From an uncultured Thermoprotei archaeon (GTDB lineage: Archaea > Thermoproteota > Thermoprotei > QMSL01 > B3-G16), in assembly GCA_964517845.1 (NCBI GenBank), contig CAZFCQ010000003.1, forward strand, positions 35,978 through 99,977: 64,000 nt of DNA, given 5' to 3'. Under the pieces are notes generated by a model. The model had not been told where the DNA came from and searched no databases. It saw only the letters and a program-made list of their open reading frames with translations. Of the stretch, positions 8,843 through 62,807 are shown one piece after another. Position numbers and translations under genes: made by a program. Positions within the stretch are counted from its first letter, which is position 1, and every line of letters begins with the position of its first letter.

Positions 8843-9786
8843 GTCTAACTTTAAAATCATTACCTAGGGAAGAATTATTCGCCCCTGGACATAGTGCTTG
8901 CCAAGGCTGTGGAGCATCAATGGCATTACGTATCGCCTTAAAGGCTTTAAGACCTGATGAGACAGCAGTACTTGTATTCGCTACAGGATGCATGGAAGTT
9001 ATTTCAACACTATATCCCTATACTGCATGGAGAGTACCTTTCGTTCACTTAGCTTTTGAAAATGCTGCCGCAGCTGCAAGTGGGATAGAATCAGCATTAA
9101 GAGCTCTTGAAAGAAAAGGCCTCTTTAAGAGTAAGAAGAAAGTTCATGTAATTGCCATTGGAGGAGACGGAGGAACCTTCGATATCGGATTACAAGCCCT
9201 CTCAGGTGCATTAGAGAGAGGGCATAAAATGCTGTATATATGCTATGATAATGAAGCATACATGAACACTGGGATTCAAAGATCTGGAGCTACACCCTTT
9301 AGAGCTTGGACCACAACTACACCAGTTGGAAAGGAGATACCCGGTAAACCTCAATTTAAGAAGAATCTTGTAGGCATAGCTGCAGCTCACGAAATACCTT
9401 ACGCTGCAACAGCTTCACCAGCATACTGGGCTGATCTAATATCGAAGGTTCGAAAAGCTCTTGACGCTAATGGTCCCTCTTTAATACACGTGTTAGCACC
9501 GTGCCCCCTCGGTTGGCGCTTTAATTCAGCAATTACAGTGGATATCGCTAGATTAGCTGTAGAAACTAGATTCTTCCCATTATATGAAGTAATAAATGGC
9601 AGAAAATATAGGATAACCATTAAAGTACCCAAACCTAAACCCGTTACAGAGTATATCAAACTACAAGGAAGATACGCGCACCTACTTAGGCCAGAGTATA
9701 GTGATTTACTTAAGATGCTACAAGAAGCTGTAGATTCGTTCTACACATGGCTCGAACACATGGAAAAAGCCACAGCTAATTTATAA
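8839..9786 (+). CDS. porB: Pyruvate/2-oxoacid:ferredoxin oxidoreductase beta subunit (TPP-binding)
   Basis: The protein carries CQGCGASMAL and the TPP motif IGGDGG. Confidence 0.9.
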   Translation: MSLTLKSLPREELFAPGHSACQGCGASMALRIALKALRPDETAVLVFATGCMEVISTLYPYTAWRVPFVHLAFENAAAAASGIESALRALERKGLFKSKKKVHVIAIGGDGGTFDIGLQALSGALERGHKMLYICYDNEAYMNTGIQRSGATPFRAWTTTTPVGKEIPGKPQFKKNLVGIAAAHEIPYAATASPAYWADLISKVRKALDANGPSLIHVLAPCPLGWRFNSAITVDIARLAVETRFFPLYEVINGRKYRITIKVPKPKPVTEYIKLQGRYAHLLRPEYSDLLKMLQEAVDSFYTWLEHMEKATANL

Positions 9787-9840
9787 ATTATAACCCTTTT
9801 TACTTAATTTGTATTATTTTTCATTATCTAGGGGCTTTAA

Positions 9841-10353
9841 ATGAGCGCTACACTCAGAATATACAGGACACTTAAGAATTTTAAGAAGCTAACATATGAT
9901 GTACTCCCTCTCTTCCTAATGCTTCCCTTACTTATCTTTCTCATTCCTTATAATCTCTTTCCAAATCCACCGGAAGGAGAATACTCTATATTTTCATTAA
10001 ATGTAATTGTACATGTAGTATTCCTAGTAATATCCTTCTTCTTATCGTTAATTGTTCCTCGTTATGATAGATGGATAGTTAGGCCTATAGTTTCTAGTTC
10101 TATAAGATTTCGTGAGCTTGCTCTTTATTGGTTAATAGAGCCACTAGCAGCGATAGGAATATGCTTTCTAGGATTTATAACCTCTCTTATATTCAAGTAC
10201 TGGTCCCCTATGATACCTTATGTGTTTATAAGCTATACATTGTTACTAATAACAATACTAAGACTTAAGTTTCATTTTGAAATAATTGATCAGAGACTGA
10301 CTAAATTAGGAGGTTATCTCGTTGAGAGACGAGATAGAAAAATATCTAAATGA
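9841..10353 (+). CDS. Hypothetical integral membrane protein
   Basis: Multiple hydrophobic segments are present, and no family is recognised. Confidence 0.4.
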   Translation: MSATLRIYRTLKNFKKLTYDVLPLFLMLPLLIFLIPYNLFPNPPEGEYSIFSLNVIVHVVFLVISFFLSLIVPRYDRWIVRPIVSSSIRFRELALYWLIEPLAAIGICFLGFITSLIFKYWSPMIPYVFISYTLLLITILRLKFHFEIIDQRLTKLGGYLVERRDRKISK

Positions 10354-10738
10354 GTGTAAAAGTTTTGAAGTGAAATATGATGATAACGGAAATCCTCTTA
10401 TCACAGATTATAGAGGTATTTCTAAAGGCACTATCGATAAAGATAAGAGCGTTTCAAAAATATTAAGGCGACGACGTCGACGACGTAGGGTACCAAAGAA
10501 AATTGTAGAAATTGTTAGACTTATTTCTTTTAAGCTACTTTCAGAAAAGATAAAACATAGGGTTATCTTTGGTAATAAAGATGTTATGATCTATCTAGAT
10601 TTCGATCACTTCATTCACATATATCCTGATAAGATCACGATAGCTGGTTTCAACTCTTTAGAGGAAGCCCCTCTAATATACCTGAGAGAGATACTAGAGA
10701 ACTATGGCCCTGTTAAGCTTCTTAGGCCTTTAAGGTGA
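10322..10738 (+). CDS. Hypothetical protein with a poly-Arg (R8) tract
   Basis: The ORF has coding-like composition. The R8 run is encoded by (CGACGACGT)x2. No family is recognised. Confidence 0.35.
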   Translation: MRDEIEKYLNECKSFEVKYDDNGNPLITDYRGISKGTIDKDKSVSKILRRRRRRRRVPKKIVEIVRLISFKLLSEKIKHRVIFGNKDVMIYLDFDHFIHIYPDKITIAGFNSLEEAPLIYLREILENYGPVKLLRPLR

Positions 10739-10811
10739 CACTTCTTAAAAAGTTTTATATCTTGATTTTTTCTTAAGTACGAGGAGAATGTAATCAAGGC
10801 GGGAAATACCT

Positions 10812-13241
10812 ATGCGTAACCTTAGATTTGCACCTAAAATCTTAGATAAACGATGGAATGTGAATGAAGAACTAACTTTATTGCAGAAGTGGAGAGAAGA
10901 AGGCCTCTATCGTTTCAATAAAAATACCAGTAAACCAATATTCTCTATAGATACTCCGCCGCCTTATGCTTCAGGAACATGGCATGTAGGTGCTGCTGCT
11001 CATTATGCTCAAATGGATATGATTGCTAGATATTTTCGTATGAAGGGTTACGAAGTTTACTTCCCCTTTGGGGTGGATAGAAATGGACTTCCTGTTGAAG
11101 TCCAAGTTGAGAAGAAATACAATATCAGTGCACATGAAGTACCTAGAGACAAGTTCTTAGCTTTATGCAAATCTTTTCTAGATGAAGTAGAGAAGGATTT
11201 ACTCAGAATTGTACAAAGATTAGGCCTTAGTGTTACTAATCTAGATGATCCTTATAGAACGGATAGCCCTAAGTATAGAACACTTACCCAAGCCACTTTT
11301 ATAGAATTATGGAAAAAAGGGCTAATCTATGAAGCTGAGAAACCGGTTATCTGGTGCCCTAAATGTAAGACGTCACTAGCTGAATCAGAAGTAGAATATG
11401 CCGAGCGAGAGACTGATCTTGTCTACATAAAGTTCACTGTAAAGGAATCAAATGAAGAGATAGTGATTGCGACTACTCGTCCTGAACTTCTCTGCACTTG
11501 TGGAGCAGTAATATACAATCCTGAGGATAAACGATATCAACATCTCCAAGGAAAGCATGCTGTAGTCCCAATCTTCATGCATGAAGTCCCTATAATTCCT
11601 CATCCTTATGCAAAACCTGAGTTTGGAACGGGACTAGTAATGGTTTGTTCCTTCGGGGATCAAAGTGATGTTAGGCTATTTCGTGAACTAAACTTGAAAC
11701 CTAAGATAGCGATAACCCCTGAAGGTATAATGAATGAGATTGCAGGTCCGTACAAAGGATTAAAGGTTGAAGAAGCTAGAAAGAAAATCATCAAGGACCT
11801 AAAAAGCAAAGATCTTATAGCTAAGATTGAGCGTATAATCCATAGAGTTCCTATATGTTGGAGATCTAAGGATCCTATTGAATTCGTAGCTATGAAGGAG
11901 TATTATCTTAAACAATTAGACTTCAAGAAAGATCTACTTAAGCTTATAGACAATATAAAATTCTTCCCTCCTGAGAGTAAAAGAATGCTAATAAATTGGA
12001 TAAATTCGATAAGCATTGACTGGCCTATTTCTCGCCGTAGATACTATGGTACTGAAATCCCTATATGGTATTGTAAGCGATGTGGTACACCTCATTTACC
12101 TAAACCAGGGAGATATTATAAACCTTGGTGCGAACCTGCACCATTTGAAAGGTGTAAAAATTGTGGTTCAAAGGAGTTCATAGGTGAGAGCAGAGTATTT
12201 GATACATGGATGGATTCAAGCATATCCCCATTATTCATATCAAACTACATGTATGACGAAGAATTCTTTAAAAGAACCTTCCCTTGTACCCTCAGGCCTC
12301 AGGGTTATGATATAATACGAACGTGGCTTTACTATACAATATTAAGAGTATTCCAGCTAACTGGAAAGCCTGCCTTCAAGTATGTTAGAATATCTGGTAT
12401 GGGACTTGATGAAAAAGGAGAAGCTATGCATAAATCCAAGGGCAATATTGTCTATCCAATGCCTATTATTGAAAAATATGGTGCTGACGCCTTTAGATTC
12501 TGGGCAGCATCTGAAGCTAAGTTAGGAGATGACTATAGATATTCTGAAGCAAAGATAAGAGCAGCAAGTCTATTTCTTACTAAACTCTGGAATATCGCAC
12601 GTTTTATATCAAGATTCCCAAAAGTAACGGAAGAGGATTATGTCCTCTTACCCTTAGATCTCATGCTCTTAGGTAATCTAAATGATATAATCAGACAGTG
12701 TAAAGACGGTTATGAAAAATTAGATCCATTTATTCCCTCTAATTTGATTAGGAACTTCACATGGAATGTATTTGCATCACATTATCTTGAAGCAGTCAAG
12801 CCTCGAGCTTATAATTTTAATAACGAGTTTACCGAAGAAGAACAGCATGGCGCATGGTTCACCTTATACACAGCTTTGGAAATTATACTAAAGTTATTAG
12901 CACCTATAGCACCTTTCATAACCGATAGCATATGGCGAAGACTATTCTCAGAAGAAAGCATTCATTCTCAAAAATTTCCAGAACCTAATCCTTCTTGGAA
13001 CACTGAGTACAAGTATATGATTTCTCCATTTATAGAATTCAATAGTAGCATATGGCGTTATAAGAAAGAACACGGTTTAGCATTAAGTCAAGAGCTAAAC
13101 ACGGTAGTTTATGCACCTAAAGAGTTAAAACCCTTTGAACGCGATCTAAAAGCTATGCATAAAATCAAGGAATTACATTTCGAGGAACCTACTGAAGAAG
13201 CCATTGAAATAGGTCCAAGGATCTATATTCTTAAAATCTAA
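10812..13241 (+). CDS. valS: Class Ia aminoacyl-tRNA synthetase, most likely valyl-tRNA synthetase
   Basis: The 809-aa product has a HIGH-region analogue (PPPYASGTWHVGAAAHY), a KMSKS analogue (MHKSKGN) and an editing/CP1 domain. The size fits archaeal ValRS. I cannot fully exclude a LeuRS/IleRS-type enzyme. Confidence 0.6.
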   Translation: MRNLRFAPKILDKRWNVNEELTLLQKWREEGLYRFNKNTSKPIFSIDTPPPYASGTWHVGAAAHYAQMDMIARYFRMKGYEVYFPFGVDRNGLPVEVQVEKKYNISAHEVPRDKFLALCKSFLDEVEKDLLRIVQRLGLSVTNLDDPYRTDSPKYRTLTQATFIELWKKGLIYEAEKPVIWCPKCKTSLAESEVEYAERETDLVYIKFTVKESNEEIVIATTRPELLCTCGAVIYNPEDKRYQHLQGKHAVVPIFMHEVPIIPHPYAKPEFGTGLVMVCSFGDQSDVRLFRELNLKPKIAITPEGIMNEIAGPYKGLKVEEARKKIIKDLKSKDLIAKIERIIHRVPICWRSKDPIEFVAMKEYYLKQLDFKKDLLKLIDNIKFFPPESKRMLINWINSISIDWPISRRRYYGTEIPIWYCKRCGTPHLPKPGRYYKPWCEPAPFERCKNCGSKEFIGESRVFDTWMDSSISPLFISNYMYDEEFFKRTFPCTLRPQGYDIIRTWLYYTILRVFQLTGKPAFKYVRISGMGLDEKGEAMHKSKGNIVYPMPIIEKYGADAFRFWAASEAKLGDDYRYSEAKIRAASLFLTKLWNIARFISRFPKVTEEDYVLLPLDLMLLGNLNDIIRQCKDGYEKLDPFIPSNLIRNFTWNVFASHYLEAVKPRAYNFNNEFTEEEQHGAWFTLYTALEIILKLLAPIAPFITDSIWRRLFSEESIHSQKFPEPNPSWNTEYKYMISPFIEFNSSIWRYKKEHGLALSQELNTVVYAPKELKPFERDLKAMHKIKELHFEEPTEEAIEIGPRIYILKI

Positions 13242-53126: not shown

Positions 53127-53522
53127 TTAAGTAAAAACTGGCCTAAACTTTATACCATACTGTATTATTCCTTCCTCTCCATTCTCACAGATCTTTCTAA
53201 GTACTGCTTCTACTTCGATACCTATATTTACTTCCTCAGGTTCTATGTCGGTAAGCTGTGCTAGTACCCTGGTACCATCTATAAGCTCTACTATAGCTAT
53301 AACATATGGTGCGTACTTTTCATATCCTCTAGGAGGAACTCTGATTACTGTAAATGTTAAAACCTTACCCCTTTCAGGGAGCTTTACATCACGAAGGTTC
53401 CTACTATGACATATAGGACATACTTTTCTTGGTGGATAATATCGTTTTCCACAGGAGAGACATTCACTACCAATAAGTCTATAATGGTATTTTATTCCTC
53501 TCCAATATCTGGGGACACTCAT
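53127..53522 (-). CDS. DUF35 OB-fold/Zn-ribbon protein (scaffold of the archaeal thiolase/HMG-CoA synthase complex)
   Basis: A Zn ribbon (CLSCGKRYYPPRKVCPICHS) is followed by an OB fold. The gene is adjacent to thiolase and HMGCS. Confidence 0.8.
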   Translation of the reverse strand: MSVPRYWRGIKYHYRLIGSECLSCGKRYYPPRKVCPICHSRNLRDVKLPERGKVLTFTVIRVPPRGYEKYAPYVIAIVELIDGTRVLAQLTDIEPEEVNIGIEVEAVLRKICENGEEGIIQYGIKFRPVFT

Positions 53523-53533
53523 ATTTACACCTC

Positions 53534-54691
53534 CTAATCTCTACGTTTTAATATATGTATCACCACAGTTCCTCCCACTCCTCCTGTAGACTGAAGAAGA
53601 GCAGTCTCAGCCTTAGAAATCTGATTCTTTCCGGCTTCTCCTCTTAATTGAAGAGTAGCATCTATGACTTGAAATATTCCTGTAGCTCCTACTGGATGTC
53701 CTCTAGCTTTAAGGCCACCCATGGTATTTACAGGTATTTTCCCATCCCTAGCTATTTCTCCTTCCCTAACGAGTAAATATCCCTCTCCCTTCTTAGCAAA
53801 TCCAAGATCCTCAAGTGCTAAAACTCCTAATATAGTGAATGCGTCATGTACTTCTAGTAGATCTATATCTTTAGGCTCTAGCTTAGCCTGTCCATAAGCT
53901 TCTTTTGATGCTACTACTGTAGCTCTTAATGTCAATATATCGTCACGCTCATGTATCGATAGATAGTCTGTAGCTGCTGAAGATGCTATAATTTCTACTG
54001 GAGTATCAGTTAATTTCTTAGCTCTATCTAATGTTGTTATGACTAATGCTGCAGCCCCATCGCTGATGGGAGCGCATTCTAGCAAATGAATTGGATCAGC
54101 TATAAATGGAGATCTCAAAATATCTTCAAGTTTAATAGGATTCCTATATTGAGCATAAGGGGTATTACATGCATTCTCATGCATGTAGACAGCGAAAGAA
54201 GCGATATCCTCTTGTTTTACATCAAATTTATGCATATAATATCTATAGATTAATGCATTTAGTCCAACAAAAGTAGCACCAGAGTAAACTACATACTCCC
54301 TATCATCTGCCATCGCCAAGGATAACGTCACATCAGGAGTTAGTTTATCTGTCATCTTCTCCACACCTCCTGCTATTACCATATCGTAAAGACCTGAAGC
54401 TACTGCTAGGTAAGCTTGATGTAAACTCATACCCCCCGAAGCACATGCTGCCTCAACTTTAGTAGCCATTATGCCTGGTCGACCTATATGACTAGCTAAG
54501 AGGGCTCCTAAATGCTCTTGTTCTTGCAAGCTACCACTCATCATATTACCTACGTACAGTGCTTCTACCTTATCCACTCCTGCATCGTCCATAGCTTTAA
54601 GAGCTGCTTCAACGAAGAGATCTCTTAATGATCTTTCCCATAATTCACCTATTTTTGTGTAGCCTATCCCAGCTATAGCTACCCTTCTCAT
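53534..54691 (-). CDS. Acetyl-CoA C-acetyltransferase (thiolase)
   Basis: The thiolase fold has the active-site Cys region (...VEAACASGG...) and C-terminal His/Cys motifs. Confidence 0.9.
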   Translation of the reverse strand: MRRVAIAGIGYTKIGELWERSLRDLFVEAALKAMDDAGVDKVEALYVGNMMSGSLQEQEHLGALLASHIGRPGIMATKVEAACASGGMSLHQAYLAVASGLYDMVIAGGVEKMTDKLTPDVTLSLAMADDREYVVYSGATFVGLNALIYRYYMHKFDVKQEDIASFAVYMHENACNTPYAQYRNPIKLEDILRSPFIADPIHLLECAPISDGAAALVITTLDRAKKLTDTPVEIIASSAATDYLSIHERDDILTLRATVVASKEAYGQAKLEPKDIDLLEVHDAFTILGVLALEDLGFAKKGEGYLLVREGEIARDGKIPVNTMGGLKARGHPVGATGIFQVIDATLQLRGEAGKNQISKAETALLQSTGGVGGTVVIHILKRRD

Positions 54692-54702
54692 AAGGATCCT
54701 AC

Positions 54703-55752
54703 CTATGTCCTAATTTTATTACGATATACAGCATAGAGTGCATAATCTACATATTTACGTCTCTTAACATAGTCTAATACTTTAGGAGCAAGATCTCTCT
54801 TACTTTCAATTGCATCCTGGACTACAATACTGAAAGCATCACTTCCAGCACCTGAGCCAAATGAAACTGCTAAGATTCTGTTACTTGGCTTAGCGATATC
54901 TAGAATACCTGCTAGACCTATTAATGTCGAAGCAGCATATGTATTCCCTATTTCTCCACATAGCAGGCCTGGTTTTAGTTGATCTACTTTAAAGCCTAGA
55001 ATACGCGCAGCTGTCATAGGGAATTTAATATTTGGCTGATGAAAAACTACATAATCAAAGTCAGAAATCTTAAGCCCAAGATTTTCCATTAAGCCTTTCG
55101 CTGCCTCAACAATATGCTTGAAATAGGCAGGTCTACCTGTAAATCTACCAGTATGCATTGGATAAAATTGCCCCTCTCGCCTCCAGAAATCTGGAGTATC
55201 CGTTACATAGGAGTACGATCCTTCTATATAAGCTATAGTTTCATAAGATTTTGGAGCTAGAATATAAGCCGCAGCACCACAGCCCGCAGTATACTCTAAC
55301 GCATCTCTAGGTCTTCCTTGAGCTGTATCGACTCCTATTGCTAACGCATAATTAACCATGTTTGATCCTACTAATGCTATAGAAGCCTCAAATGCCTCTG
55401 TTCCAGCTTTGCATGCAAATTCTAAATCTGCAGCTAGGCTTACTGGAGTTATACCTAATGCCTCGGCGATTATAGTCGCACTCGGTTTTACAGCATAAGG
55501 TTTACTTTCTGTACCGATTCGTATGGATCCTATATCACGTGGATCTATTTTTGCTCTTTTTAATGCATTTTTTGCAGCTTCAATAGCCATGGTAACAGAA
55601 TCTTCGTCAGGTCCTACGATACTCTTCTCCTTTACTGGAATAGTAGAACTCTTCCATATCCTGGAAATTTCTTCTCCTTTTATCCTATACATTGGGATAT
55701 AGACTCCATAGCCTATTATACCTACTTCCCTTGAAGGTCTCATATAGTTCAC
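54703..55752 (-). CDS. Hydroxymethylglutaryl-CoA synthase (archaeal type)
   Basis: A thiolase-like fold is present, with ...[11 protein letters not shown]... around the catalytic Cys. Confidence 0.85.
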
Positions 55753-55809: not shown

Positions 55810-56358
55810 TTATTCGACAAGTTTTAATATCTCTTCTAGACGAGAATTCAGATCTCTTAACATTTCCTTTATCCTATTTACTCTTCTTTCTAACTCCTTC
55901 CTCCTAGATCTCTCTTCACTATATTTTGAAAGAAGATTTTCTCTCTCACTCTCTAACTCCCTAATTCTCTTTTCTAACTCTTGGGTACTTTCTGCTAGAA
56001 GTTCTCCTGGTAAAGTTACCTTAAAGCCCTCCTTGCGTATTTTCTCATAAGTTTCTCGTACTAATCTACCAGCTTTAGTTCTACCACTAAGGTGATTTCT
56101 TATTGTACCCTCAGATCTGCCTAGGTCATCTGCTATCTGACTTACACTCATGCCTGCTCTTTCCCTTGCTAAGGCCCCTGCGGCTACTGCTAAAGAGTCT
56201 ATCCATGTTAATCTCTCTTCGCTCTCCCTAATCTCCTTAATTACATCTTCCCTTAATAGAGTTCCGATCAAAAGTGCTGTCTCAAGTTTGTGAATCTCCT
56301 CTCTACCTAAAGGTCTTAGAGGTATCTCCTCATTATTCATAATTATCACCTTACTCAT
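55810..56358 (-). CDS. HTH transcriptional regulator with a C-terminal coiled coil
   Basis: A putative HTH (MSVSQIADDLGRSEGTIRNHL) is followed by a charged heptad-like C-terminus. The gene is upstream of and co-directional with the KaiC-like gene. Confidence 0.5.
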   Translation of the reverse strand: MSKVIIMNNEEIPLRPLGREEIHKLETALLIGTLLREDVIKEIRESEERLTWIDSLAVAAGALARERAGMSVSQIADDLGRSEGTIRNHLSGRTKAGRLVRETYEKIRKEGFKVTLPGELLAESTQELEKRIRELESERENLLSKYSEERSRRKELERRVNRIKEMLRDLNSRLEEILKLVE

Positions 56359-56388
56359 ATTACTAGAAATAATAGGGGATATTTAGTA

Positions 56389-57147
56389 TTATTCCTCCTC
56401 TAATATTCCTCTTCGTATCCGCAGGGTCTTATCTGCATAAATTATTATACCTTTGTCTGTTATATCGAATGGATGTCTTCTCATACTATGCGATGTCCCT
56501 CGCATTTTCCACACTATAACACTTCTCTTTAATTCTCCCTCATATTCGTCCAGATCAAGTCTTATAATACCATCAGCTGCATGCTCAACTCCAGGTCCAC
56601 CGAATCCTCTCTCTGTAGAGCTTACTTGACTTACTAATATTGATGTACATCCCATACCTGAAAGCATTCTCTTTAATTGCATTACTACACTCCTTGCGAC
56701 TGATGGTTTAGTTAAATACAATGTAGATACAGAATCTATAACTACCCTTTGAGCATTTACCTCCCTTATAGCTCTTCTTAATACATCGACTAACTCATGT
56801 ACATCGTCTGGATTCTTAACAACATACTTCTCCCTTTTTGCATACTCTCCTATGCCTCCTGTAAAAGCATCTACTATGGCAAAAAGCCCTTCTATTTCGT
56901 AATCTTTAACTTCCCAACCAAATTTTGCCATATTATCTATTATCTGTTTAGGATGTTCCTCTAAAGCAACAAGTATTCCTGGCTCCCCATTTAATAGTCC
57001 ATAATACAGAAATTGTTGCCCTAATATTGACTTACCTGTTCCCGGCCCCCCAGATAAAAGGACTATATTCCTTCGAGGAATACCACCATGTAATACTTCA
57101 TCCAATCCAGGTACTCCAGTCTTAACTCTCTCTATCCTTTTTGGCAT
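56389..57147 (-). CDS. KaiC-like RecA-superfamily ATPase (single KaiC domain)
   Basis: The N-terminal [31 protein letters not shown] carries Walker A, with Walker B (VVIDS). Confidence 0.8.
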
Positions 57148-57216
57148 CCCTTATTCCCGAGTAATATGTCTCCTAAAAGCGTATTATTAATCTTTAGAAA
57201 TTTGTGATGATATCTA

Positions 57217-57852
57217 CTACTTACAGTACCTCTTAGTTATGTAATCCTCTATAGCCTTGAATATCGTTTCCATGGCATCGTATCTTAATAGCTCTCTACT
57301 GCCCTTAGCCACATAGTAGATACCAGGCTTCTCTATGAAGCCCATTAGAAGAAGTTCTCCTTCTAAAAATTCTATCAAAAAGTGTTTCCCTCCTGCGGAT
57401 ACCTTAAGTACCTCATCAATTAATTCCTTTATAAGAGCAGCTTCCGCTTCTCCCTTCTCTTTATTCCCTTCTGTAGTTTCAATAAGTAGACCAGAAGCAT
57501 CTGCTATTGTTATACCCTTAAGTTCGTATCCTTTAGCTAGTTCCTCTATTGAATTAGCTTGTATTAATGTTATCTTTCTTTCCTTTTCTACTTCGTGTCG
57601 TAATGTACCTTGTGTAAAGCTCCCTAAAACCATTCTAGCTAATAATCTTATAGAGCTTGAATACTCCATTATGAATTTCCCGAGTACCCTATTCGTTTCT
57701 CTTAGGTCTTTAATAAGCTTCCTACGTAAATACGTACTGACAAGTAATAACGTTAAGGCGTATATTATGATCATAAGCACGTCTTTAGGGGTAAAAGAAA
57801 GCAGATCTTTTATTATAAAATCCCATAAGTTACTCAGAAACTTCACCTCCAA
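57217..57852 (-). CDS. Membrane-anchored Roadblock/LC7 (MglB-like) domain protein
   Basis: An N-terminal TM helix is followed by a C-terminal roadblock-like ...ITIADASGLLIETTEG... Confidence 0.5.
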   Translation of the reverse strand: MEVKFLSNLWDFIIKDLLSFTPKDVLMIIIYALTLLLVSTYLRRKLIKDLRETNRVLGKFIMEYSSSIRLLARMVLGSFTQGTLRHEVEKERKITLIQANSIEELAKGYELKGITIADASGLLIETTEGNKEKGEAEAALIKELIDEVLKVSAGGKHFLIEFLEGELLLMGFIEKPGIYYVAKGSRELLRYDAMETIFKAIEDYITKRYCK

Positions 57853-58165
57853 ATATCTTCCTTAGTATAACATATATCTTACCTAGGTTAGGTTTAACTC
57901 TGGTCTTGCTTACAATATACTCTTTTCCTTTTTTAACAATTATGATATGACTCTCATCCTCTAACATGATATCTACATGCTTTATGTTATGAGGAAAAAT
58001 CTCGCTTTTTATGATCTTTATTATTTCATTTAGAGTTTCCTCGCTTATGTCTCTAGGGGAAAATTTACCAAGTACATCACCATTACTACTTAAGACTATT
58101 ATCCACTCTATGTCCTTTCTACTCTCTACTAATACTCTTTTAATTAGAGTCTCCCATGATTTCAC
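57830..58165 (-). CDS. Roadblock/LC7 domain protein
   Basis: The 111-aa product has ...IIVLSSNGDVLGKF... with an alpha-beta-alpha sandwich-like pattern. Confidence 0.5.
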   Translation of the reverse strand: MKSWETLIKRVLVESRKDIEWIIVLSSNGDVLGKFSPRDISEETLNEIIKIIKSEIFPHNIKHVDIMLEDESHIIIVKKGKEYIVSKTRVKPNLGKIYVILRKIFGGEVSE

Positions 58166-58273
58166 TTTAAGCCCTCTTTATTAACCTTTAAATCTAAGTT
58201 GAACTAGTATTAATCACGCATTTATGTATATTTACCCATAGTATGTCTTCCATGTACTTATAAGGGGGACTTT

Positions 58274-59434
58274 ATGCCTGCTAATCTGCCTGCTGAAGCA
58301 AAAGCTAAATGGATTAAAGTTATGGAAGCTAGAACTCCTGAAGAGAAATTAAAAGCATTACAGGAATTCCTCTCTTGTGTCCCTAAACATAAGGGAACTG
58401 AAAAGCTTATAAGTCGAATTAGACGTCAAATGGCTCTATTACGTAGAGAGATAGAGGAGCGACGACGAAAGAAACATAGTACTTATTCTCCTTTTTCTAT
58501 ACCACGAGAGGGGAATCTTCAATTAGTACTTATAGGTATGCCTAACTCTGGTAAAAGTTTACTACTTAGAAGATTAACTAATGCTAAACCTAAGGTTTCT
58601 CCTATACCCTTCTCTACTAACATACCTGTACCTGGTATGTTTATTTATAAAGGCGTCCTAATACAGATCATAGAAGTTCCTTCGTTTTTCCTCCTCTCAA
58701 GTAAGGGTTCTCTAGCCTCTCAATCATTAGCACTTATAAGAAATAGTGATGGTATCCTCATGGTTCTTGATGCTAGTGAAGATCCCTTAGAACAATTCAA
58801 TAGGATAACTAAAGCCCTTGAAGGAGCACATATCAACATAGTTAGATCATCATGCTTAATTGAAATAAAACGTACAAGAGAGGGGGGTATAAGGATTTTT
58901 GGTAAGCTTAGAGGGTGCACTCATAACGATGTCATAAAACTTTTGAATTCTTATAGAATCTTTAATGCAGTAGTTCATATATGGGGCGAAGCAACCCTTG
59001 ACGATATAGAGAACTCCATATTTGAAAGTTACGTATACAAGCCTACTATTGTCTTAGTAAATAAAGTCGAAGATAAATCTGCACATTATAAAGCTATTAA
59101 GGTAAAAGATCTATTAGAGGAGAAAGTACCTACTCTCCTTATCTCAGCTAAAAGTGGTAGTGGCTTAGATCCCGAAAAACTAGGTTCCTTAATATTAAAA
59201 ACATTAGATGTTATTCGCGTATACACCAAAGAGCCTGGTTCGCCCCCATCTCCTAAGCCACTTGTTTTACCAAGAGGAGCTCGAGTAATAGATGTAGCTC
59301 GTAGAATTCATAGCCATTTTGAAAAGTATTTTAAGTACGCTAAGGTATGGTCAGAATACTTACCTTATTCTCCTCAAAGAGTAGGTGCTGACTTTGAATT
59401 ACATGATGGGGATATAATTGAGATACGAGTATAG
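58274..59434 (+). CDS. DRG-family (Obg-like) GTP-binding protein with a C-terminal TGS domain. The G3 motif is divergent
   Basis: G1 is GMPNSGKS. A YKG..IQ.. block is present as in DRG, but the G3 site reads EVPS instead of DxPG. The C-terminal TGS is ...LHDGDIIEI. Confidence 0.65.
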   Translation: MPANLPAEAKAKWIKVMEARTPEEKLKALQEFLSCVPKHKGTEKLISRIRRQMALLRREIEERRRKKHSTYSPFSIPREGNLQLVLIGMPNSGKSLLLRRLTNAKPKVSPIPFSTNIPVPGMFIYKGVLIQIIEVPSFFLLSSKGSLASQSLALIRNSDGILMVLDASEDPLEQFNRITKALEGAHINIVRSSCLIEIKRTREGGIRIFGKLRGCTHNDVIKLLNSYRIFNAVVHIWGEATLDDIENSIFESYVYKPTIVLVNKVEDKSAHYKAIKVKDLLEEKVPTLLISAKSGSGLDPEKLGSLILKTLDVIRVYTKEPGSPPSPKPLVLPRGARVIDVARRIHSHFEKYFKYAKVWSEYLPYSPQRVGADFELHDGDIIEIRV

Positions 59435-59498
59435 CATTTAGCTATTTTAAGAAATACCTTAACTTTTCTTAAGTTTTTAGAAGTAGTAGGGTCTTACA

Positions 59499-61244
59499 AT
59501 GAGAAGAGCATCCAGAGATACTAACGCTAAGGAATTATTTCTCTTACGAGCTGGTACTATGTTAGCAGTCTCCTTACTTACTTTTTCATCACTATCCTCA
59601 TCACCTTTATCATTAAGCCTAGCATTCATAGCTCCTCTTCTAGCCCTAAAAAGCATGTCGTATGCAGTTATCTACGACCTCATAGCTTATTGGTTCTTAT
59701 GCTTTCTTTATCAGACACCTTTAGCTGTAATACTGCTACCCTCAATCATAATAATTATTTTACAATCTCTAAATACATGGATTAGCGGTCTAGGATTCAT
59801 TTCAATAATGTTATCAGCATTGAATAATCGCTTTACGTTTTTTGCTCCGTCTATTCTTTTAATCACATCCTCCTTTATGCCTGCAAAGGAAGCTCTAATA
59901 TTCTCCATATTTACTTCCATCTCTTCTCTCTGTTTATTAGTATGGAGTGGCTCTTATCAATCTTTACTAATGGTGATTCCTCCTTTCATGAATTTCTCAA
60001 TACCCACTGGTATGCAGTTTAATGGAAGTATAGTTGATACGATTCTTCAATCCTACCCTTTCATTTCTAGTCTTCTACGGATATTCCTAGCTGATTTAGT
60101 AGTACCATTACAATTCTCCCTCTACGTCTCCTCCTCCTATATATCATCAATGATTCATGAAAAGATGAAACATAGATTAGGCGCATTTTTATCGTTGCTA
60201 GCATCCACATTTTTACCCTTGGTTTTGATTATTGCAAATCATGGATTTCTCTTAGCTAAATATGGGCTTTCAATCCCTTATCATAACTACTTGCTCTTGC
60301 TAATAGTAACTTTAGCTTTATGCTATACTTTAACTCAAATCTCGCTTCTTTCAGAGAGACTAGCATATGCCTCTAACTCCTCTAACTATGGTTATTATCA
60401 AAGTAGCCCTTTAAATAAAACCCTATCTCTCGATGATGTAGGAGATATGGAATGGCTTAAGGAAGAGCTTTATGAATCAATAGTACTTCCACTTATCGAA
60501 TCTAAATTAATGCGATATTATAATGTAAAGCCTGTTAAAGGTATACTTTTATTTGGCCCTCCGGGATGTGGTAAGACTCTAATAATGCGTGCATTAGCTT
60601 CATCGATAAGAGCTAATTTCCTTTACATCAGGTTTAGTGATATCCTCTCTAAATGGTATGGAGAAAGTGAGCGTAGAATAGCTGAAATCTTTGAGAAGGC
60701 AAGAAGTATGAGACCTTGTATAATATTTCTTGATGAGATTGATGCGCTAGGACGTAGTCGTGATTCATATTCATCTGATGATGTAGCGCCTAGGATACTA
60801 AGTGTTATATTAAGCGAGATGGATGGTCTGGATCCAAGCGAAGGCGTTATCGTCGTAGCAGCTACAAATACTCCTCACCTCTTAGATCCTGCACTCTTAA
60901 GACCAGGTCGTTTCGATAAACTAATATACGTTCCTCCTCCTGACTTAAAAGCTAGAGCTGAAATCCTTAGAGTTCACCTCCGTAATATGCCCCTAAGTGA
61001 AGATGTAAGTATAGAGAAATTAGCTTCACTTACGGATGGTTTTTCTGGCGCAGATTTAGCGATGTTATGTCAGGAGGTAGCTAGAAGAGTGGCTCTAGAA
61101 GCTGCTAAAACTAAGCATTACCGTAGAATTACAATGGAAGACTTTCTCAAGGTCCTTTCTCGCATGAAGCCAAGTATAACATCAGAGCTTTTAACTAAGT
61201 ATGTAGAATTTCAGCGATTTTATGAAAGGAGATTTCTAATATAA
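59499..61244 (+). CDS. Membrane-embedded AAA+ ATPase (N-terminal polytopic TM domain + single AAA module)
   Basis: The protein has about 300 aa of TM helices, then Walker A (GPPGCGKT), Walker B (IIFLDEID), SRH and sensor 2. Confidence 0.75.
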   Translation: MRRASRDTNAKELFLLRAGTMLAVSLLTFSSLSSSPLSLSLAFIAPLLALKSMSYAVIYDLIAYWFLCFLYQTPLAVILLPSIIIIILQSLNTWISGLGFISIMLSALNNRFTFFAPSILLITSSFMPAKEALIFSIFTSISSLCLLVWSGSYQSLLMVIPPFMNFSIPTGMQFNGSIVDTILQSYPFISSLLRIFLADLVVPLQFSLYVSSSYISSMIHEKMKHRLGAFLSLLASTFLPLVLIIANHGFLLAKYGLSIPYHNYLLLLIVTLALCYTLTQISLLSERLAYASNSSNYGYYQSSPLNKTLSLDDVGDMEWLKEELYESIVLPLIESKLMRYYNVKPVKGILLFGPPGCGKTLIMRALASSIRANFLYIRFSDILSKWYGESERRIAEIFEKARSMRPCIIFLDEIDALGRSRDSYSSDDVAPRILSVILSEMDGLDPSEGVIVVAATNTPHLLDPALLRPGRFDKLIYVPPPDLKARAEILRVHLRNMPLSEDVSIEKLASLTDGFSGADLAMLCQEVARRVALEAAKTKHYRRITMEDFLKVLSRMKPSITSELLTKYVEFQRFYERRFLI

Positions 61245-61319: not shown

Positions 61320-62807
61320 ATGAAAAGGAGAAAATATGCATTCTATAATGGAAATAACAAGTGCATCATCTTTGGATTCTCTCTGTTAATACTTGTCCTA
61401 TCTATCTATGGTCTCCTAATGATAGCCAGTACTTTACGTGGTGCTAGTGCTGAGCATGTTTACTATGGTTATGTTCCTCCTAGTACTGATATCGAGAATA
61501 TTGATGAGCTGATTAATGGTGAGATAAGAAACTACACACCACCCCCTGGAACAGCACTACTAGACATAATAGGCACAGAGGATAATACAAAGGTTGAAGT
61601 CTACGATATATCAACTGGTGAAAAGATAGTAAGCATTACTGTAGATAGGTTAGAGAAGAAGACACTATTCATACCATATGGTACTTATTTCAAAGTAGTA
61701 AGTAATAAGAGAGTAATAGCCCACCTAGTCGGAGGAAATGATGGTCCCAGTATGGATCGTGGTGAAGCAGGCTTCTACCCATCAGTAGAGGGAGGGTTTA
61801 GAGGTAAAGAGTTCATATTCATACCTATGTCAGTATCTGACAGCTATGTAACGGGGCACTCTAATGGTTATAATGCTTATATTCTTGGTCTAACAAAAGC
61901 AGACTTTGAGCTAGTAGACTCATCTGGTGTTTGGTCCTCAAAGAGTACTGTTGATCAACACGGTGCTAAAATGTACTTATTATGGGGTAGAATTAATCAT
62001 GGAGATGCAGCGATGGGCGCTGGGAACTCCATGATATTCCATCTAACCGCTAGTGATGATGTGATGGTAGCCTCAATGAATAGTGGTGCTTTAATAGCAG
62101 TACCAGCAGTTACAGGAGGTTTTGTTGGTAAGTTATTCCTAGCACCAGTACACATGTCGTTCCGCCCAGGAGTAGGTACTGCTGGCTTGCTAATTATTCC
62201 TTGTGAGCCTGGTAAGGTTGAGATTTATGATGCTTCTAGTGGTGAGAAAGTCGCTGAGAAAAGCTTTAGTGAGAGTGATGTAGCCCAAAACACCTACTGG
62301 TTTAGAAAATTCGGTCAAACTAGGGAGAAGGAGTACATAATTAAGAGTACTGGTAATATTGTTGTTTATACTGGTGTTACTGATGGTAGTGAGGATCCTC
62401 AGGATATGGGTCCTGATGTTACTATTGTTGGTGCTAGACCTAATGAACTCATTAAAGTCTTCGTACCAACTATTGGTATAATTTTCGCTCCTGAGGATGT
62501 TAAGGTTACGATTGATGGTGTTATGAGGAGGCTTAAGAAGGATGAGTTTACACTACTCGATATGGGTGTTCACTCAATTAAAGCAGATGCTCCCATAATA
62601 ATCGAACTAGTCTGCACAAAAGGAACACCATGGGCTTGGGGAGAGTATCTGATTGAGCCTGCTGATATTCTCAAATCATACGAAATACCAGAAGGCTTCG
62701 GTGAAATCAAAGCCGGTTTAAACATTACAATGATAGTCGGAATAGCAGTTGTGGTCATTATTGTAGCTCTTGCTGTATTTATAATGATGCGAAGGAGAAG
62801 AAGATAG
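61320..62807 (+). CDS. Secreted/cell-surface protein with an N-terminal signal anchor and a C-terminal TM anchor + poly-Arg tail
   Basis: An N-terminal hydrophobic segment is present. The C-terminus is ...ITMIVGIAVVVIIVALAVFIMMRRRRR. Confidence 0.55.
   Translation: MKRRKYAFYNGNNKCIIFGFSLLILVLSIYGLLMIASTLRGASAEHVYYGYVPPSTDIENIDELINGEIRNYTPPPGTALLDIIGTEDNTKVEVYDISTGEKIVSITVDRLEKKTLFIPYGTYFKVVSNKRVIAHLVGGNDGPSMDRGEAGFYPSVEGGFRGKEFIFIPMSVSDSYVTGHSNGYNAYILGLTKADFELVDSSGVWSSKSTVDQHGAKMYLLWGRINHGDAAMGAGNSMIFHLTASDDVMVASMNSGALIAVPAVTGGFVGKLFLAPVHMSFRPGVGTAGLLIIPCEPGKVEIYDASSGEKVAEKSFSESDVAQNTYWFRKFGQTREKEYIIKSTGNIVVYTGVTDGSEDPQDMGPDVTIVGARPNELIKVFVPTIGIIFAPEDVKVTIDGVMRRLKKDEFTLLDMGVHSIKADAPIIIELVCTKGTPWAWGEYLIEPADILKSYEIPEGFGEIKAGLNITMIVGIAVVVIIVALAVFIMMRRRRR

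Follow-up and report, generated by a model that had tools for sequence, protein, structure and literature searches.

Two putative divergent transcription units, a KaiC-type operon with probable Roadblock-like genes and a DRG GTPase gene with a membrane AAA+ ATPase gene, in an uncultured Thermoprotei archaeon

A cluster of six genes in an uncultured Thermoprotei archaeon raises the question of what a GTPase of the DRG family does next to a KaiC-like ATPase, two small proteins resembling Roadblock/LC7 and an AAA+ ATPase with a membrane domain. Do these genes form one module around the GTPase, or are they two units that are merely neighbors? The cluster lies in a stretch of 64,000 nucleotides (nt) of contig CAZFCQ010000003.1 (positions 35,978–99,977 of the forward strand), which is called the window here and to which all coordinates refer unless a locus is named. 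All six open reading frames (ORFs) of the original prediction were found where it had placed them, and the cluster is as compact as it had claimed: successive genes are separated by 30, 69, −23 (an overlap), 108 and 64 nt. Its assignments of a KaiC, a helix-turn-helix (HTH) protein, a DRG and a polytopic AAA ATPase were right; those of two Roadblock proteins are less secure, resting on profile matches with E values of about 1e-4.

Our best explanation, also the most economical one, which we hold with about as much confidence as doubt, is that the cluster consists of two adjacent, divergently transcribed units and not of one module centered on the DRG. The two small genes (s111 and TM211), the KaiC gene and the HTH gene are all encoded on the minus strand and the DRG gene on the opposite strand. 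This reading is favored because the Roadblock-like pair is co-oriented and tightly packed with the KaiC and HTH genes, with the DRG gene on the other strand. Unit A, on the minus strand, would be a KaiC-type regulatory operon with a PH0284-type KaiC and its TIGR03879 HTH/coiled-coil partner, ahead of which one Thermoprotei lineage would have added two fast-evolving, translationally coupled Roadblock-like genes. Unit B, on the plus strand, would contain the lineage's ordinary copy of a DRG clade with an N-terminal extension (MPxNLP; switch II [E/D]-x-P-[A/S/P]), followed by a lineage-specific membrane AAA+ unfoldase with an ATPase domain derived from the D2 domain of Cdc48. For comparison, we used loci fetched around DRG-family genes of relatives, which are labeled L001 to L092.

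The KaiC gene and its conserved partner

The KaiC gene (56389–57147, minus strand) encodes a single-domain ATPase of the RecA superfamily of 252 amino acids (aa), which is of the PH0284/UPF0273 type. The protein matches Pfam KaiC with an E value of 1e-88 over profile positions 1–230 of 231, and NCBIfam TIGR03877 (thermo_KaiC_1) with 445 bits at a cutoff of 307. Its single KaiC/RecA domain carries the Walker A motif GGPGTGKS, and the closest solved structure is Pyrococcus PH0284/UPF0273 (2dr3, E = 1e-117). It differs from the cyanobacterial circadian KaiC, which has two tandem KaiC domains and the partners KaiB and KaiA: against the circ_KaiC models the window protein scored 117–151 bits, with cutoffs of 408–546, and no KaiB- or KaiA-like genes were found near the KaiC gene.

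Thirty nt downstream lies the gene for the HTH protein (55810–56358, minus strand; 182 aa). It matches TIGR03879 ("near_KaiC_dom") at aa 38–110 with 74.3 bits (cutoff 65.1), gives weak HTH and coiled-coil matches in Pfam and has a C-terminal coiled coil at approximately aa 115–182. The TIGR03879 HTH/coiled-coil protein is the curated conserved partner of PH0284-type KaiC, and in the window both proteins pass the curated cutoffs and adjoin in the usual order. According to published genome surveys, ATPases of the KaiC family are predicted regulators, for most of which the second component is not known, and Roadblock/LC7 proteins (arCOG02603) recur as accessory genes in loci for archaeal type IV pili; in archaeal loci, both families have accessory or regulatory roles (PMC4858521).

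In a Bathyarchaeon (L011) the KaiC-HTH pair stands alone: the two genes are translationally coupled, without Roadblock genes or an adjacent DRG gene, and are located approximately 6 kb downstream of the DRG gene of that genome (approximately 7 kb from the DRG start). In comparison with this pair, the one in the window is preceded by two Roadblock-like genes, one of them coding for a protein with a predicted membrane anchor. The KaiC protein is 88% identical to that of L001 and 72% identical to that of L011, while the Roadblock-like pair is the fastest-evolving part of the cluster (38–40% identity). This difference fits a conserved core to which one lineage has added an accessory.

As a separate observation, the PH0284-type KaiC (window 56389–57147; L011 16861–17763) is far more conserved than the DRG (48–70%) or nearby metabolic enzymes.

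The two small proteins are probably Roadblock-like

The first of the two small genes, s111 (57830–58165, minus strand), encodes a probable soluble Roadblock/LC7-like protein of 111 aa. The second, TM211 (57217–57852, minus strand), encodes a protein of 211 aa with one predicted hydrophobic segment at its N-terminus (transmembrane (TM) helix at approximately aa 17–43), a helical linker and a probable Roadblock/LC7-like domain at approximately aa 100–211. TM211 begins with a TTG codon, a start that is supported by the conservation of the N-terminus among the orthologs. A 176 aa ORF on the plus strand (57335–57865) was rejected as an antisense shadow of TM211.

Neither window protein has a match to Pfam Robl_LC7 (PF03259) or to an NCBIfam model, and a word-indexed search of 5.8 billion proteins returned for each only the query itself. 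Orthologs in L001, L081 and L083 are 31–40% identical for s111 and 23–38% for TM211, and these three loci and the window supplied the four sequences of each of the two family profiles (A2 for s111, A3 for TM211). The top two PDB matches of the s111 profile are solved Roadblock/LC7 proteins (9jue_D, E = 8.9e-5; 7f8m_A, E = 0.0088), and the s111 ortholog of L081 matches Pfam Robl_LC7 at 2e-5. The top match of the TM211 profile is likewise a solved Robl_LC7 protein (7f8f_A, E = 1.5e-4), which spans only profile positions 124–176 (53 positions; the β1-β2-α2 part); the TM211 protein of the window itself gives a faint match to LAMTOR5 (E = 0.14). An alignment of the two family profiles is in register, although weak (hhalign E = 0.12). 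Single-sequence AlphaFold2 models reached a predicted local distance difference test (pLDDT) score of 47 for s111 and 39 for TM211 and are unusable; that of s111 contains only the first H-E-E-H elements of the dimer-forming α-β-β-α-β-β-β Roadblock fold, at low confidence. From the profile matches we conclude that a Roadblock-like fold is probable for both proteins, with the better support for s111.

The two genes are closely linked wherever the junction was compared. In the window the end of s111 and the start of TM211 overlap by 23 nt, and the overlap is 29 nt in L001 and 1 nt in L083; L081 has a gap of 5 nt, and L091 encodes an equivalent pair of 111 aa and 214 aa proteins with a gap of 6 nt. 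Genes that overlap or abut in this way argue for translational coupling and for a heterodimer of the products.

These data also have to be weighed against another explanation, which we regard as unlikely: the juxtaposition would be meaningless, the small proteins would be lineage-specific membrane and soluble proteins with another role, and the resemblance to Roadblock would be a false positive. The missing Pfam matches of the window proteins, the word search that found only the query, the weak comparison of the two family profiles and the low-confidence models would all agree with this explanation, and close relatedness explains the synteny described below. It is contradicted by two independent family profiles that each rank a solved Roadblock/LC7 protein first, and by the s111 ortholog with a Pfam Robl_LC7 match. 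In addition, the two genes have stayed coupled in five lineages despite identities of only 23–40% among the four aligned genomes, a sign of selection on the pair.

Comparison with MglA/MglB and Ragulator-Rag shows likenesses and differences. As in those systems, the genes for two Roadblock-like subunits lie side by side, suggestive of a dimeric platform, and a GTPase gene adjoins them. One of the window subunits is predicted to be membrane-tethered, which is loosely like Ragulator with its LAMTOR1 anchor. The differences are that the adjacent GTPase is of the Obg/DRG class and encoded on the opposite strand, and that the sequence similarity of the window proteins to Roadblock is marginal.

In the two-unit explanation, s111 and TM211 would form a membrane-anchored Roadblock heterodimer, tethered by the N-terminal helix of TM211. 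The heterodimer might serve as input or adaptor for the nucleotide or phosphorylation state of the KaiC hexamer, with the HTH/coiled-coil protein as the output of the unit. If true, coupling of Roadblock and KaiC would give a conserved archaeal ATPase of the PH0284 type a membrane-linked input, and would extend the role of Roadblock proteins as NTPase regulators from GTPases to RecA-type ATPases. The addition of Roadblock-like genes to the PH0284-type KaiC pair is new relative to curated knowledge, as is the polytopic membrane AAA described below.

Loss of the G3 glycine is a property of a broad DRG clade

The DRG gene (58274–59434, plus strand; 386 aa) is separated from s111 by a divergent spacer of 108 nt (58166–58273, read directly). 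Its product belongs to the DRG family (Obg-class TRAFAC GTPases, COG1163). MMR_HSR1 (PF01926, 2e-15), MMR_HSR1_Xtn (PF16897, 3e-14) and TGS (PF02824, 5e-15; aa 314–384) were all found above the gathering scores, and the protein aligns over its full length, from residues 21–24 to 384, with yeast Rbg2 (7nrc, 3e-38) and Rbg1 (4a9a). The domain order is that of Rbg1 and Rbg2 (COG1163/arCOG00358), with an N-terminal helical region, MMR_HSR1 with Xtn (S5D2L) and a C-terminal TGS domain. In contrast to Rbg1 and Rbg2, the window DRG has a conserved N-terminal extension of approximately 20–30 residues (MPANLPAEAKAKW...), VPKHKGTEK in place of TPKNKATE, an Asn in the P-loop (GxxNxGKS), E-V-P-S in place of D-x-P-G in switch II and NKVE as G4 motif, and no gene for a DFRP-like partner is apparent. 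By homology to Rbg1/Rbg2 the protein is presumably ribosome-associated.

The G1 motif GMPNSGKS (aa 88–95) is intact, and G3 (EVPS, aa 134–137) and G4 (NKVE, aa 263–266) are non-canonical, the canonical motifs being DxxG and NKxD. The degenerate G3 had been taken as a sign that the GTPase may depend on the Roadblock pair, a proposal that the distribution of the motif contradicts. The glycine of DxxG is missing in all 17 aligned relatives from Thermoprotei and Bathyarchaeia. It is likewise found in 0 of the 90 family members for which the G motifs were counted (out of 91 fetched loci), 50 of which have EAPA and the rest [E/D/K]-x-[P/M]-[A/S/P/D]. An exhaustive HMMER search of 1.84 billion cluster representatives yielded 407 proteins at E ≤ 1e-30, and among the best 150, which were inspected, the glycine is present in 9 and absent in 141. 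Four of these nine are canonical DRGs without the extension (TPxNKATE, GxPSVGKS, DLPG), which stand at the bottom of the list by score. Source names were available only for two of the four, the cluster representative P0237 and a member of the cluster of P0253, and point to Nanohaloarchaeota and Hydrothermarchaeota. The G3 change is clade-wide and old and is therefore neither explained by local Roadblock neighbors nor evidence for them. Since homologs of the Roadblock pair lie beside the DRG only in the clade of the window, the motif long predates the neighborhood.

Hallmarks of the family are the N-terminal extension MP[AT]NLPxEAKxKW and the motif [VI]PKHKGTEK. At least 587 species-level genomes, from Thermoprotei, Bathyarchaeia, Nezhaarchaeota and Sulfolobales, encode such N-extended DRGs, which also occur in Thermococcus (under the name "GTP-binding protein 2") and in Nanoarchaeota. 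The family thus forms a broad archaeal DRG clade with vertical distribution. This is the pattern of a housekeeping gene, against which the original prediction had argued.

Further motif losses suggest a repeated drift of the N-extended clade towards pseudo-GTPases: 15 of the 90 locus members have Arg in place of the P-loop Lys (GxxxxGRS), and the P-loop is wholly lost in approximately 10 of the 150 representatives. NKVE in place of NKxD occurs in 8 of the 90 members, mostly in the clade of the window; L083, which has the full cluster, retains NKVD. The window DRG has also lost the stretch EGA..G.AWG after switch II, a loss that it shares only with L001.

That N-extended archaeal DRGs lack the DxxG glycine across the clade is new relative to curated knowledge, and no description of this loss was found in the literature searched. 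The loss may matter more than the cluster, as it concerns archaeal DRGs as models for eukaryotic DRG/Rbg proteins, and its occurrence across many archaea raises the question of how such DRGs hydrolyze GTP. According to reviews, archaea possess one DRG each (PMC3064805; PMC8629797). For S. islandicus, the part of the published gene table that reaches M164_1500, and not M164_2000, contains one COG1163/arCOG00358 gene, M164_0198; it tolerated 18 transposon insertions, appears to be non-essential and is located directly upstream of the TadC pilus-assembly gene M164_0199 (PMC6249222). Neither the window nor any of the 91 loci contained a second DRG. The name "GTP-binding protein 2" in Thermococcus is a hint that a canonical DRG and an N-extended one coexist in some archaea.

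A membrane AAA+ ATPase follows the DRG gene

The gene downstream of the DRG gene (59499–61244, plus strand) encodes a membrane AAA+ ATPase of 581 aa, with a polytopic N-terminal domain (approximately aa 1–290) followed by one AAA domain. Seven hydrophobic segments were predicted within residues 32–275, and the membrane domain of approximately 290 aa has no Pfam match. The C-terminal part matches Pfam AAA (PF00004, 3e-42) and AAA_lid_3 (PF17862, 6e-11) and ends in a Vps4_C-like helix. Its motifs are intact: Walker A (GPPGCGKT), pore loop (KWYG), Walker B (IIFLDEID) and the arginines of the second region of homology (SRH; RPGRFD). The best PDB matches of the AAA domain are the D2 domains of VAT/p97/Cdc48.

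With the Cdc48/VAT D2 domain, FtsH and Msp1/ATAD1 the protein shares an AAA domain of the classical clade, with KWYG pore loop, SRH arginines, lid and Vps4_C-like helix; like FtsH and Msp1/ATAD1 it appears to be attached to the membrane, according to the hydrophobic segments. It differs from Cdc48/VAT in having one AAA domain and no Cdc48 N-domains (no CDC48_N/2 match), and from FtsH in the lack of an M41 protease domain (no Peptidase_M41 match). The scores with the curated models are far below their cutoffs (CDC48, 282 against 803; FtsH, 229 against 600).

Orthologs with 5–8 TM segments and one AAA domain are confined to the clade of the window. The membrane domain evolves fast, with 37% identity to that of L001 as compared to 81% for the AAA domain. 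L082, from a lineage without the membrane AAA, contains after the DRG gene a stand-alone ORF for a polytopic protein of 293 aa (9218–10099, plus strand), whose alignment to the membrane domain of the AAA protein is colinear over 201 columns (hhalign E = 0.0033), and a Cdc48 gene (10305–12470, minus strand) lies convergent behind it. The membrane AAA may have arisen by fusion of such a 293 aa-type membrane protein to a duplicated Cdc48 D2 domain. A pairing of DRG and membrane AAA in Thermofilaceae, indicated by tblastn, was rejected, since the genes in question code for Cdc48 proteins of 717–720 aa without TM segments. A Cdc48 gene directly follows the DRG gene in the two Thermofilaceae loci L002 (4635–6788) and L003 (11287–13449) and in a metagenome-assembled genome of unclassified Thermoprotei (L004, 8758–10911).

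The gene order is restricted to close relatives

Altogether, 80 species-representative loci around DRG-family members were compared, and the complete cluster was found in only one of them, L001 (70% DRG identity). Loci from closer metagenomic relatives extend the picture. L083/84 (58%) contain all six genes, and L081/82 (62%) have the HTH gene, the KaiC gene, a gene for a 237 aa protein and one for a 129 aa Robl protein, divergent from the DRG gene, and no membrane AAA. L091 (57%) covers the small pair, the DRG gene and the start of a downstream gene, and L085/86 (57%) contain the KaiC gene divergent from the DRG gene, which is followed by the membrane AAA gene, without the small pair and without the HTH gene. 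The full cluster is thus limited to relatives with at least 57% DRG identity. At 52% identity or less the neighbors of the DRG gene are unrelated: Bathyarchaeia have a conserved context of their own, and in L092 (51%) the DRG gene lies among the genes for PTH2, TruD, L13e, LSM and RIO2. When every ORF of 50 aa or more in the 91 loci was scanned with hidden Markov models of s111 and TM211, homologs were found only in the clade of the window, and the only four loci that the s111 profile recovered from metagenomes also belong to this clade.

Conservation of the gene order in related Thermoprotei, as had been predicted, is therefore real and extends to five further lineages with 57–70% DRG identity (L085/86 in part). 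It is, however, weak evidence for function, because the flanking metabolic genes are equally syntenic within the clade, so that the order reflects relatedness; the syntenic block upstream comprises the genes for enolase, an AP-endonuclease-2-fold protein, a DUF35/OB protein, thiolase and HMG-CoA synthase. The change of neighbors outside the narrow clade largely speaks for a coincidental association of the DRG gene with the others. On this basis the cluster appears to be a lineage-restricted neighborhood, and any joint function is putative.

With these data the proposal that the Roadblock pair serves the DRG can be assessed. The pair would be a membrane-anchored partner of the DRG, similar to a GTPase-activating protein (GAP) or guanine nucleotide exchange factor (GEF), and would form a membrane signaling or remodeling module with the membrane AAA and possibly also KaiC. 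According to the passage of PMC3149612 that cites Koonin and Aravind (2000), Roadblock/MglB proteins classically regulate GTPases. In the window the DRG would be the obvious client: among the 68 non-overlapping ORFs of the 64 kb it alone has the GTPase signature of a P-loop and NKx[DE], and this motif scan revealed no MglA-like, small Ras-like or Rag-like GTPase. The divergent arrangement of Roadblock-like and DRG genes has been kept in the window, L001, L081, L083 and L091, and the additional changes in the window DRG, NKVE and the loss of EGA..G.AWG (the latter shared only with L001), also count in its favor. We nevertheless consider the proposal distinctly improbable. The G3 change is family-wide and older than the neighborhood, no locus outside the clade has Roadblock homologs beside the DRG gene, and the Roadblock-like genes are co-oriented and coupled with the KaiC gene, not with the DRG gene. 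L085/86 keep the DRG and the membrane AAA genes and have lost both Roadblock-like genes. Alignment of the 108 nt divergent spacer with the same region of four relatives gave no conserved motif, and the synteny of the clade reaches unrelated metabolic genes. To our knowledge, Roadblock partners are small Ras-like or Rag GTPases and not proteins of the Obg/DRG class.

A more far-reaching version of this proposal is a long shot. DRGs of the clade, which lack the switch II glycine and in some cases the P-loop, would be partner-regulated or non-hydrolyzing nucleotide sensors, and the one of this Thermoprotei lineage would have recruited a membrane-anchored Roadblock heterodimer as a GAP/GEF-like platform and a Cdc48-derived membrane unfoldase. 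If true, this would be the first pairing of Roadblock with a protein of the Obg/DRG class, and it might connect membrane-bound ribosomes with the extraction of proteins, under the control of the ATPase KaiC.

The arrangement in L085/86 bears on another possibility, namely that KaiC, DRG and membrane AAA form the core, for example as a membrane-proximal unit for translation or protein quality control, and that the Roadblock pair and the HTH protein are dispensable accessories. In L085/86 the KaiC gene, the divergent DRG gene and the AAA gene have been retained despite the loss of the Roadblock and HTH genes and a rearrangement upstream. DRG and AAA genes are co-directional with gaps of 54–89 nt in four lineages, the pore loop and Walker motifs of the AAA protein are intact, and in L082 a homolog of its membrane domain follows the DRG gene. 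We find this possibility highly doubtful: all these genomes belong to one narrow clade, so that the adjacency may simply be inherited, and only one of the other 76 loci has a KaiC gene in the vicinity of the DRG gene, 7 kb away. Moreover, L081/82 are entirely without the AAA domain, and the spacer between the DRG and AAA genes contains T-runs and TATA-like boxes that are compatible with separate transcription. Combined, a functional link of either kind, Roadblock to DRG or KaiC to DRG and AAA, is rather unlikely in our view.

Several observations weigh against the two-unit explanation that we prefer. The assignment of the small proteins to Roadblock is based on profile matches with E values of about 1e-4, which for TM211 cover part of the domain. 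The DRG carries the sole GTPase signature of the window, and the established partners of Roadblock/MglB proteins are GTPases; we know of no experiment or structure that links Roadblock domains to KaiC-type ATPases. A TATA-like stretch is present inside the 69 nt gap upstream of the KaiC gene, and the KaiC and HTH genes may therefore be transcribed apart from the Roadblock-like pair; together with the T-runs and TATA-like boxes before the AAA gene, it makes the operon boundaries tentative. Finally, the contiguity of KaiC, DRG and AAA genes in L085/86 after the loss of the Roadblock pair and the HTH gene hints at a link between these three that two separate units leave unexplained.

Neighboring genes

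The cluster was also considered as an anti-phage defense system, a possibility that was rejected because PADLOC gave only generic AAA, HTH and P-loop similarity (IetA, TRIP13, Csa3-like HTH). Next to the HTH gene is a row of three genes (53127–55752, minus strand), for HMG-CoA synthase, thiolase and a DUF35/zinc-ribbon-OB protein, which is kept in L001, L081 and L083. Their products are the archaeal mevalonate-pathway set known to make up a channeling complex, and the arrangement is an ordinary one.

On the other side, a gene for a protein of 495 aa (61320–62807, plus strand) follows the membrane AAA gene. Pfam gave no match to the protein, nor did tblastn against the fetched loci. A hydrophobic segment lies at its N-terminus and a TM helix, with RRRRR behind it, at its C-terminus, a layout that suggests a surface-anchored protein. 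At the same position, L001 encodes a different protein of 503 aa with a similar layout.

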